From assembly GCF_046105845.1 (NCBI RefSeq), contig NZ_CP151004.1: a DNA stretch of 64,000 bases. One strand, written 5' to 3'. Positions 13,562 to 15,594 of this stretch are shown here, piece by piece (position 1 is the first letter of the stretch; each line of letters begins with the position of its first letter). This DNA comes from Escherichia coli. GTDB lineage: Bacteria > Pseudomonadota > Gammaproteobacteria > Enterobacterales > Enterobacteriaceae. Both the position numbers and the translations under genes were made by a program. The notes beneath the pieces are model-generated. The model had not been told where the DNA came from, ran no database searches, and was given only the letters and a program-made list of their open reading frames with translations.

Positions 13562-13584
13562 GCTGTCAGTTCGTAAGTCAGAAA

Positions 13585-13612
13585 GCCGCCGACATGTTCG
13601 GCGGTTTTTTTT
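13585..13612 (+). terminator. Intrinsic terminator of nuo operon
   Basis: GC stem CCGCCGA/TCGGCGG followed by a T8 run immediately after the nuoN stop. Confidence 0.7.
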
Positions 13613-13627
13613 GGTGCCCTGACCCCA

Positions 13628-14131
13628 TCACCCAACAATAACCGTCAGCGCATGATTCCCTTGTCGCAGCATACGTCGATACGCACTAATCAGCTTTTCC
13701 ATATCAAGCATGATCGAAGCAAAGAGTTGCCCCTCTAACTCTTCTGAAAAAGTCACACCAGGGTAAATCTCCATTTCATTGAGTCGTTTAATGGAAAACT
13801 GTTTACGCAGCTCACTTCGATCCAGAGCTTCCAGTCGGTCGATTGTCGCGGCTAACTCCTGATTCCAGGTCAATCCCAGGAAGCCATCTATGCCATCTTC
13901 GAGGCTGTGTTCACCAAGCACGGCACGACTCAGCGGATCATTTTTCGCGGGATCAAAAGCAGAGGTGCCTGTCAGGCCAAAATGTAAAAAATCCCAGCGT
14001 TTATCAATATCCAGTCGGCGTAATCCTGAAAGCGTGTCATGAATATTATCCATCAAAGGTTTTTGAGTAGACTCAAGAAGTTGGTTAATCTTTTCTGAGT
14101 CAATTTCTGCAAAATAGCCAATCATTCCCAT
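13628..14131 (-). CDS. yfbM: Hypothetical cytoplasmic protein, yfbM-like (DUF1877-type)
   Basis: 167-aa ORF, same length and position as K-12 yfbM next to yfbL; identity recalled from synteny and length, not from motif. Confidence 0.6.
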   Translation of the reverse strand: MGMIGYFAEIDSEKINQLLESTQKPLMDNIHDTLSGLRRLDIDKRWDFLHFGLTGTSAFDPAKNDPLSRAVLGEHSLEDGIDGFLGLTWNQELAATIDRLEALDRSELRKQFSIKRLNEMEIYPGVTFSEELEGQLFASIMLDMEKLISAYRRMLRQGNHALTVIVG

Positions 14132-14230
14132 TTTATTTTCCTCCGTTGAATTTCATGTTTCGCATCTTAAAACAGACGAGGGAAAATAAAATGTACATGT
14201 CGCTTTTTCTGGACCCGCCTCGAGAAAATT

Positions 14231-15205
14231 TTATTGTTTACTGTTGTATAACAAAGTTATAACCCCATCCACGACCTGAGCCATTTTCTGATAATTCAAT
14301 CTGTCTGCGGTATCACCGGGCAAGTGGTATTGTTTATTACGATAAAAAGCGGTGTCGGTAATCATTACGGCGGGAATATCGTGTTGCCAATAATTAAGGT
14401 GATCAGAGAAATCAATACCGAGAATAAACCCTGGGGCATTCATAGAATAAACAGATAAATCCCGGGATGACAACAATGCCGCTTTTACCTGACGAACGGC
14501 GTTGATATCCTGCATTCTGCCGACCACGGCAATAAAGTCTCCCCGATCGGGATAAAGCCAGGACATTGCCGGGTAAGGGTAATCCTGACTACCAGGCGCA
14601 GAGTCGTAATAGCCAATCATCTCCAGCGCTATCATTAATCTCACTGGACGCTCAAGCGAAGCTGCATGTACCGCGCTCCCCATTTCATCGCTACGAAAGA
14701 AGGGCGGTTCTTCCGACGCATAGGCGACCAGCTGCACGCCAGTTTTCGGTGCTTGCTGCTGTAACAAACGTGCCAGTTCGAGTAATCCTGCCACGCCACT
14801 GGCGTTATCATCCGCGCCCGGCGTATAGGTCAATTGATCGTTTTCATAACTGCTGACAGAGTCATAGTGCGCACCAATAATAATCAGCGGTCCATCGGCA
14901 GGACCATAATCAGCAACAATGTTTTTGTAGGGACCTCCCGTAATGGGGACGTCCTGCGCGGTAACTCTGGCACCGCTACTGATAAAGACCTCTTTTATAT
15001 ACTCTGCGGACCTTTTCAGATTATCAATATTGTCGGCACTACGTGGATGCACAGTTTGTGTAAGATAACGAACTGTTTTTTCTAATTGCTCAGGACTTGC
15101 GTGTCGGGGCGTTGGCGGTAATGCATTGACCCAGGGTTGATAAAAAATAATAAAAGGAAGTGATAGTAGTAATGATATAAAACAAAGAGGTGTTATTTTT
15201 TTCAT
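14231..15205 (-). CDS. yfbL: Secreted M28-family aminopeptidase-like protein
   Basis: 324 aa; N-terminal signal peptide MKKITPLCFISLLLSLPFII; peptidase-like body. Confidence 0.8.
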   Translation of the reverse strand: MKKITPLCFISLLLSLPFIIFYQPWVNALPPTPRHASPEQLEKTVRYLTQTVHPRSADNIDNLKRSAEYIKEVFISSGARVTAQDVPITGGPYKNIVADYGPADGPLIIIGAHYDSVSSYENDQLTYTPGADDNASGVAGLLELARLLQQQAPKTGVQLVAYASEEPPFFRSDEMGSAVHAASLERPVRLMIALEMIGYYDSAPGSQDYPYPAMSWLYPDRGDFIAVVGRMQDINAVRQVKAALLSSRDLSVYSMNAPGFILGIDFSDHLNYWQHDIPAVMITDTAFYRNKQYHLPGDTADRLNYQKMAQVVDGVITLLYNSKQ

Positions 15206-15544
15206 ATGTAAATTATCAATAAAAGGCGTTATTTCATTATTATTTATAATGAGTTATGAGCGTTTATTTTATTACGGTTGGTAGGAATATACAAAAAGTA
15301 TTTTTTTCAGTGGTTCGCTATTTTAAAAAGGAATTCATATGAGAAATATAAAATAATTATGTTATTTATTGGTAGATTGAATTGACAGGGTGCAGAAATC
15401 TGAGGGTAAGAAAAATCAGCAACAACAATCCACTACATCAACAGACCAGCAATCGCGTGCCGCGATACGCTGGAAATACCCGCAGATTGAACTGGTGGAT
15501 GGTGTGACTGGCATCAGTCAGTGATGACTTTTTAGCAAACTATG

Positions 15545-15578
15545 TTCGACCAGTCAGCATATTTACTGACTGGTCGAA
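15545..15578 (-). terminator. Hairpin 3' of elaD: perfect 13-bp inverted repeat TTCGACCAGTCAG / CTGACTGGTCGAA with 8-nt loop
   Basis: Read directly; sits 17 bp downstream of the elaD stop. Confidence 0.5.
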
Positions 15579-15594
15579 TTAATTAACAATGATG

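Follow-up and report, generated by a model that had tools for sequence, protein, structure and literature searches.

A yfbK remnant and an empty yfbN-yfbP site between nuoN and elaD in a non-K-12 lineage of Escherichia coli

The stretch of Escherichia coli DNA analyzed here (64,000 nucleotides, referred to below as the window) lacks yfbK and the yfbN, yfbO and yfbP genes that K-12 carries between nuoN and elaD. We consider it very probable that the spacer separating yfbL from elaD holds a non-functional remnant of yfbK, belonging to one old allele of single origin, and that the place where K-12 has yfbN-yfbP is an ancestral empty site. The interval contains no active element; at one spot a gene was lost, and at the other none was gained.

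As the K-12 reference we used the locus of strain JM83 (L001), in which the genes run nuoN, yfbP, yfbO, yfbN, yfbM, yfbL, yfbK, elaD and rbn. A preliminary description of the window had given this order correctly and had reported yfbK and yfbN-yfbP as lacking; alignment to K-12 confirmed that the gene content differs. The features of the interval are as follows:

12104 to 13561, + strand: nuoN, the last gene of the nuo operon (485-aa ORF), 98.6% identical to K-12 nuoN and annotated nuoN in matching genomes
13580 to 13612, + strand: nuoN intrinsic terminator, a GC-rich hairpin followed by a T run
13610 to 13626, unstranded: empty insertion site of 17 bp, where K-12 has 2,561 bp (yfbP, yfbO, yfbN)
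13628 to 14131, - strand: yfbM (DUF1877 family), intact, 167-aa ORF, Pfam DUF1877 E = 3e-35, 96.4% identical to K-12
14231 to 15205, - strand: yfbL (M28 family metallopeptidase), intact, 324-aa ORF, Pfam Peptidase_M28 E = 5e-26
15130 to 15464, unstranded: hyper-divergent haplotype block of ~335 bp, spanning the start of yfbL (first ~25 codons), the DNA between yfbL and yfbK, and the remnant's 5' piece
15339 to 15464, + strand: 5' piece of the yfbK remnant, K-12 nt 1-132, codons 1-44, ~75% identical
15465 to 15485, + strand: internal piece of the yfbK remnant, 21 nt, K-12 nt 1456-1476, codons 486-492, IRWKYPQ
15486 to 15524, + strand: 3' piece of the yfbK remnant, K-12 nt 1690-1728, codons 564-575 and the TGA stop
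15545 to 15578, unstranded: perfect hairpin of 13-15 bp between the convergent 3' ends of yfbK and elaD
15595 to 16818, - strand: elaD (ElaD/SseL family deubiquitinase), intact, 407-aa ORF, Pfam ElaD_SseL-like_N, Peptidase_C48 and ElaD-SseL-like_C

The names yfbM, yfbL and elaD agree with the annotation in matching RefSeq genomes. Both spacings given earlier are exact: 66 bp lie between the end of nuoN at 13561 and the yfbM stop codon, which begins at 13628, and 389 bp of AT-rich DNA (15206-15594) separate the start of yfbL (15205) from the stop of elaD (15595). The proposed assignment to a non-K-12 lineage is likewise sound, with identities to K-12 of 98.6% for nuoN, 94.8% for yfbL and 94.3% for elaD. 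Complete E. coli RefSeq genomes reach at most 98.5% identity to the window over 24 kb and at most 98.1% over the locus. The exact YfbL protein is found on 19 public contigs with the same neighbors, and over 13 kb the draft contigs that encode it are 99.97% identical to the window, with the gene order unchanged. These near-identical drafts indicate that the window's lineage is real and has been sampled, though not among complete genomes.

Within the yfbL-elaD spacer, a stretch of higher GC had been noted, readable in one frame as ...RAAIRWKYPQIELVDGVTGISQ-stop and looking like the C-terminal tail of a former gene. The stretch is there (GC of 0.505 in 15420-15530 versus 0.257 in 15206-15419), as is the frame (15390-15524 in the ORF listing), and alignment and TBLASTN name the former gene as yfbK. 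The description as a tail was too narrow, however, for the gene has also kept its 5' end and 21 nt from its interior. Base-level alignment, exact-match mapping and TBLASTN all resolve a remnant at 15339-15524, composed of three collinear, abutting pieces in the original yfbK frame; searched with K-12 YfbK, the spacer yielded three abutting fragments in the same frame.

In the 5' piece, alignment to K-12 and EcPNK004 reveals a 1-bp and a 5-bp deletion. The native ATG, at 15339, does not open a continuous frame, the 1-bp deletion bringing a stop after codon 5 (translation M-RNIK*) and the 5-bp deletion following further downstream. With the spacer as target, TBLASTN matched residues 24-44 of YfbK to 15402-15464 at E = 6e-5. 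The internal piece contains 18 nt identical to K-12 yfbK nt 1459-1476, in frame, and all seven of its residues are identical by TBLASTN. In the 3' piece 37 of 39 nt are those of K-12 (TBLASTN IELADGVTDISQ versus IELVDGVTGISQ), and it is continuous with a 95% identical alignment that runs into elaD. BLAST placed window positions 15464 and 15485 at L001 positions 6519 and 8076, inside yfbK; breakpoints were also mapped on a genome that has yfbK but lacks yfbN-yfbP. The missing stretches are K-12 nt 133-1455 (1,323 nt) and nt 1477-1689 (213 nt), both multiples of 3. Subtracting them from 1,728 nt leaves an expected 192 nt, and 186 nt are seen after the 1-bp and 5-bp deletions. Junction 1 shows no more than 3 nt of microhomology (ATA) and junction 2 no more than 1 nt, too short for the mechanism to be read from the junctions.

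Since the evidence from protein comparison taken by itself is weak (E values between 6e-5 and 4e-3 when the spacer is the target, and no significance when the whole window is), the identification of the remnant rests on DNA alignment and synteny: its homology is to yfbK, and its place, flanked by yfbL and elaD, is the syntenic one. K-12 yfbK (b2270), which encodes a predicted vWA-domain protein, occupies the same place, convergent with elaD. In contrast to that gene, the remnant is without 89% of the coding sequence (1,536 of 1,728 nt) and without all three Pfam domains; vWF_A, VWA and YfbK_C occupy residues 102-568 of K-12 YfbK, and the remnant retains residues 1-44, 486-492 and 564-575. As judged from these comparisons, 15339-15524 is a yfbK pseudogene remnant and not a gene. 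We aligned the spacer in eight E. coli lineages (the window, N3, O157:H7 F7508, strain 135, p10B, WCHEC96200, CFSAN018748 and A2), and both yfbK junctions are identical in all eight, which points to a single origin.

At the other spot, the BLAST breakpoints place window positions 13609 and 13627 at L001 positions 2110 and 4672, and the K-12 insertion has the nuoN terminator on one side and the yfbM stop codon on the other. The segment it comprises in K-12 (yfbP, yfbO, yfbN) is of low GC (0.398), and no direct repeats or target-site duplications were seen at its ends. Between nuoN and yfbM the window has 66 bp only, with none of yfbN, yfbO and yfbP or their remnants, and TBLASTN with K-12 YfbN, YfbO and YfbP gave no credible match across the whole 64-kb window. 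The gap has a folding energy of -26.4 kcal/mol (z = -4.4), and its terminator sequence, AAAGCCGCCGACATGTTCGGCGGTTTTTTTT, is kept in K-12, N3, EcPNK004, E. whittamii and SCPM-O-B-8794. The short intergenic sequence GGTGCYCTGAYACCA, which includes the 17-bp site, is also shared with E. whittamii and SCPM-O-B-8794. The yfbN-yfbP segment is carried by only 1,015 of 5,426 complete E. coli genomes, which together with that conservation argues that K-12 has an insertion. Most likely, to judge from the sequences compared, yfbN-yfbP was never inserted here. On this reading nuoN would abut yfbM because a low-GC yfbP-yfbO-yfbN cassette of ~2.6 kb, present in K-12 and its relatives, is not inserted, and the empty state would be the ancestral one.

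In the same set of 5,426 complete genomes the 389-bp spacer is covered over at least 80% of its length in 2,577 and the yfbK interior is present in 2,540; genome collections are biased to clinical and laboratory strains, and such fractions describe the database rather than nature. The window's state, with neither yfbK nor yfbN-yfbP, is the common one in E. coli, and K-12 is in the minority for yfbN-yfbP. A configuration this common says little beyond "not K-12". The yfbK-deleted alleles of many other sequenced strains, O157:H7 (F7508), A2, p10B and N3 among them, have the same two junctions and the same three pieces, in spacers 92-98% identical to that of the window. The neighboring genes set these strains apart: yfbL is frameshifted or shortened in O157:H7, A2 and p10B, and elaD is frameshifted in N3, WCHEC96200 and CFSAN018748, whereas both genes are intact in the window.

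A scan of species-representative genomes with YfbM recovered four outgroup loci, which we mapped with K-12 proteins; E. fergusonii, E. marmotae and E. ruysiae are not among the four, at least under those names. In E. albertii yfbM and yfbL are followed by an intact yfbK and by rbn. In E. whittamii nuoN stands beside yfbM and is followed by yfbL fragments, an intact yfbK and rbn, and Escherichia sp. MOD1-EC7003 has a homologue of yfbN, then yfbM, yfbL, an intact yfbK and rbn. The presence of intact yfbK in these three loci makes the gene ancestral in the genus and its loss derived. The fourth locus belongs to SCPM-O-B-8794, a divergent strain labelled E. coli that is its own GTDB species representative; here nuoN stands beside yfbM, yfbL follows, and what is left of yfbK is a short remnant that separates yfbL from the next gene downstream and keeps the 5' end, as in the window. 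This remnant has a single junction, however, from about codon 40 to about codon 524, and lacks both the 21-nt island and elaD. The distinct junction argues for a parallel, independent loss of yfbK.

Several other histories deserve consideration. The open frame through the remnant (44 codons, GTG at 15390 to TGA at 15524) could be viewed as a new small protein gene salvaged from pieces of yfbK. Such a gene would account for both deletions being in frame (1,323 and 213 nt) and for one frame spanning all three pieces, and in the window, O157:H7 F7508 and A2 no stop interrupts it over 47 codons. Yet four of the eight lineages have stops in it (TAA in N3 and CFSAN018748, TAG in strain 135 and p10B), and in a fifth, WCHEC96200, a 13-bp deletion truncates it. 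The lipoprotein signal sequence, which lies upstream of the frameshifts, is lost, and O157, A2 and p10B carry mutations in the former yfbK start codon (ATG). Moreover, the 44-aa frame has no Pfam match, no promoter-like site was called upstream of it on the + strand within the spacer, and two in-frame deletions would arise by chance about one time in nine anyway. We give this idea almost no credence: a frame broken or truncated in five of eight carriers is that of a decaying pseudogene undergoing neutral decay. For yfbN-yfbP, one could envision that the genes were once present in this lineage and were then deleted. The yfbN homologue of MOD1-EC7003, which adjoins yfbM, is 93.5% identical to YfbN at the amino acid level (it is cut by the end of the locus) and implies that the cassette is older than the K-12 lineage. 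Strain ETEC6335 has a variant cassette at the same site, with yfbO, yfbN and, where K-12 has yfbP, a gene of the SMI1/KNR4 family, which marks the nuoN-yfbM site as a hotspot, filled repeatedly or for a long time. A deletion from this lineage is nonetheless highly improbable, as no remnant of the cassette is left in the window and the 17-bp filler is the empty-site sequence of E. whittamii and SCPM-O-B-8794. Conservation of that sequence in two outgroup loci makes the empty site the older state and K-12 the one with the insertion; a deletion would not recreate it. In addition, 985 of the 1,015 carriers are at least 99% identical to K-12 over the segment while the flanking genes differ by 2-6%, suggesting that the filled allele spread recently. 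It is also conceivable that a filled site may have been replaced by the empty allele at some time in the lineage's past, which the greater age of the cassette would allow.

The remaining alternative concerns the divergent block. In sliding windows, identity to K-12 and to EcPNK004, in both of which yfbK is intact, is 64-76% inside the block and 95-100% on both flanks; the right edge coincides exactly with junction 1, and the left edge falls within the first ~25 codons of yfbL. Carriers of the remnant are ~90% alike within it. A block diverging by ~30% and ending at junction 1 is not accounted for by simple deletion in place followed by decay. It is possible, if doubtful, that the deletion was imported together with divergent Escherichia DNA, block and deletion being one event, with a homologous left end inside the 5' end of yfbL (~15130-15150) and an illegitimate right end inside yfbK. 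The abrupt change in identity and the position of the right edge are what such an event would produce. So is the distance of the window-type block from K-12, which exceeds that of two other species, the K-12-type block sharing 92% identity with MOD1-EC7003 and 88% with E. whittamii; and the signal-peptide region of the window's YfbL resembles that of SCPM-O-B-8794 rather than that of K-12. Block type and yfbK deletion also appear to be completely linked. Identity to the block has a bimodal distribution in the 5,426 genomes, at or above 80% in 2,795 and between 60 and 80% in 2,538, the latter number nearly matching the 2,540 genomes with the yfbK interior; among the matches listed, every low-identity genome has an annotated yfbK and no genome with the window-type block does. 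Complete linkage would be expected in any case, however, for sites a few hundred bp apart. No donor emerged, as the block shares only 66-73% identity with any of the four outgroup loci, and an import would leave the 21-nt island and the second junction unexplained. Joining at the right end would be akin to homology-facilitated illegitimate recombination, a process documented mainly in naturally transformable bacteria, which counts against its operation here. An old polymorphism limited to fast-evolving signal-peptide and intergenic DNA, within which the deletion arose later, fits the same pattern.

Returning to the reading of the spacer as one old allele of decayed yfbK, we propose that two internal deletions would have removed K-12 yfbK nt 133-1455 and 1477-1689, and that the 5' piece would have gained its frameshifts afterwards. 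The three-piece structure could also reflect one complex event with a 21-nt filler. The allele would have arisen once, and about half of sequenced E. coli now carry it. The ends that survive are sequences that the neighbors probably need, namely, on the left, the presumed promoter region from which yfbL and yfbK diverge and, on the right, the yfbK/elaD hairpin. One could speculate further that the old yfbK-deleted haplotype and its linked block are shared across species or introgressed, and are held at a ratio of about 50:50 by balancing or niche-dependent selection on YfbK. We regard this as very unlikely, although YfbK, a predicted vWA-domain lipoprotein, could be a target of phage or of host recognition, and the fact that a second Escherichia lineage lost yfbK independently would be consistent with selection favoring the loss under some conditions.

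The hairpin at 15545-15578 is kept in all aligned E. coli alleles, whether yfbK is present or not. It folds at -24.5 kcal/mol (z = -5.4) on the + strand and at -27.3 kcal/mol (z = -7.3) on the - strand. No clear U-rich tract lies 3' of it: on the + strand the bases after the stem are UUAAUUAAC, on the - strand CAUAGUUUGC. The terminator scan left the hairpin uncalled. It is probably a structure shared by the two transcript ends; for want of the U tract we do not call it a proven terminator. The scan for promoters and terminators gave no more sites than shuffled sequence did and placed no promoter-like site in the spacer. A scan of 13400-15800 against Rfam 15 at a permissive E-value gave nothing at gathering score and two matches at chance level, with 16-19 bits against gathering scores of 34-60. 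One is a Fluoride riboswitch lying over the nuoN terminator (16 bits against a gathering score of 34), the other a eukaryotic lncRNA family, also below threshold; both were rejected.

Presence and absence of elaD have been described, including its absence from B2/ExPEC strains and its recurrent pseudogenes (PMC1847702, PMC12575377). The full texts of these two articles make no mention of yfbK, yfbL or the remnant. The difference in yfbK and yfbN-yfbP between K-12 and other strains is already plain from thousands of annotated genomes. What the window displays is ordinary, already visible variation in E. coli gene content, and the linked divergent block is a minor curiosity.

Annotation of the locus should record the spacer as a pseudogene remnant of yfbK and should list no gene for the 44-aa ORF. 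K-12 is the atypical genome here: the yfbN-yfbP genes are "missing" relative to it, which does not mean that genes were lost. The linked divergent block is a small case of mosaic ancestry beside a deletion, of interest to research on E. coli recombination only. The locus as a whole could serve as a lineage marker, with yfbK intact or deleted, the yfbN-yfbP site filled or empty, and elaD present or absent.

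Across the 5,426 complete E. coli genomes searched, the yfbK deletion and a divergent block at 15130-15464 appear to be in complete linkage, the right end of the block coinciding exactly with the first deletion junction. Within the block, divergence from yfbK-intact E. coli alleles is about 30%; its edges are sharp, and the flanks are 95-100% identical. The YfbL signal peptide of the window type is like that of the divergent Escherichia SCPM-O-B-8794 and unlike that of K-12.

In E. coli (here window 15486-16818), the last ~10 yfbK codons seem to have been replaced by an elaD-bearing insertion. 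The elaD gene is absent from all four non-K-12-type Escherichia loci (E. albertii, E. whittamii, Escherichia sp. MOD1-EC7003 and SCPM-O-B-8794; L015-L018), and in each of them rbn directly follows yfbK or its remnant. The C-terminal end of YfbK reads ...IGLAKDLDNSQN or similar in these loci versus ...IELADGVTDISQ in E. coli.

At least three states occur at the nuoN-yfbM site, which is a minor hotspot:

State 1: empty
State 2: yfbP-yfbO-yfbN (K-12 locus L001, 2111-4671)
State 3: yfbO-yfbN with a gene annotated as SMI1/KNR4 family instead of yfbP (E. coli ETEC6335 locus L010, 3501-5389)

The ETEC6335 insert shares about 83% DNA identity with the K-12 insert across their common part, and 24 genomes fall in the 80-90% identity band to the latter. 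No Pfam match at E <= 0.001 was obtained for the ETEC6335 protein annotated as SMI1/KNR4 family.

While yfbM, yfbL and elaD are all intact in the window, elaD is frameshifted in N3, its nearest complete genome. In many yfbK-remnant E. coli, O157:H7 included, yfbL is by annotation a pseudogene, either frameshifted or shortened; the genomes compared with window 14231-15205 are O157:H7 F7508 (L004), p10B (L006) and A2 (L009). An IS1203 element also truncates yfbM in F7508. Inside elaD, identity to K-12 dips locally to 82-91% (16435-16584 and 16135-16284), and over the same segments N3 and the yfbK-intact genome EcPNK004 remain 97-100% identical to the window. This pattern of local dips suggests that elaD alleles are mosaic among E. 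coli lineages.

The window lineage is under-represented among finished genomes: the best identity among complete RefSeq E. coli genomes is at most 98.5% over 24 kb (17000-41000; 13000-17200 was also compared), and draft contigs match at 99.97% (e.g. GCA_017765825.1). In SCPM-O-B-8794 (L017, about 11710-11965 after reverse-complementing), a different, single yfbK junction joins approximately codon 40 to approximately codon 524. This deletion arose independently, so that yfbK has been lost in parallel in a separate Escherichia lineage.
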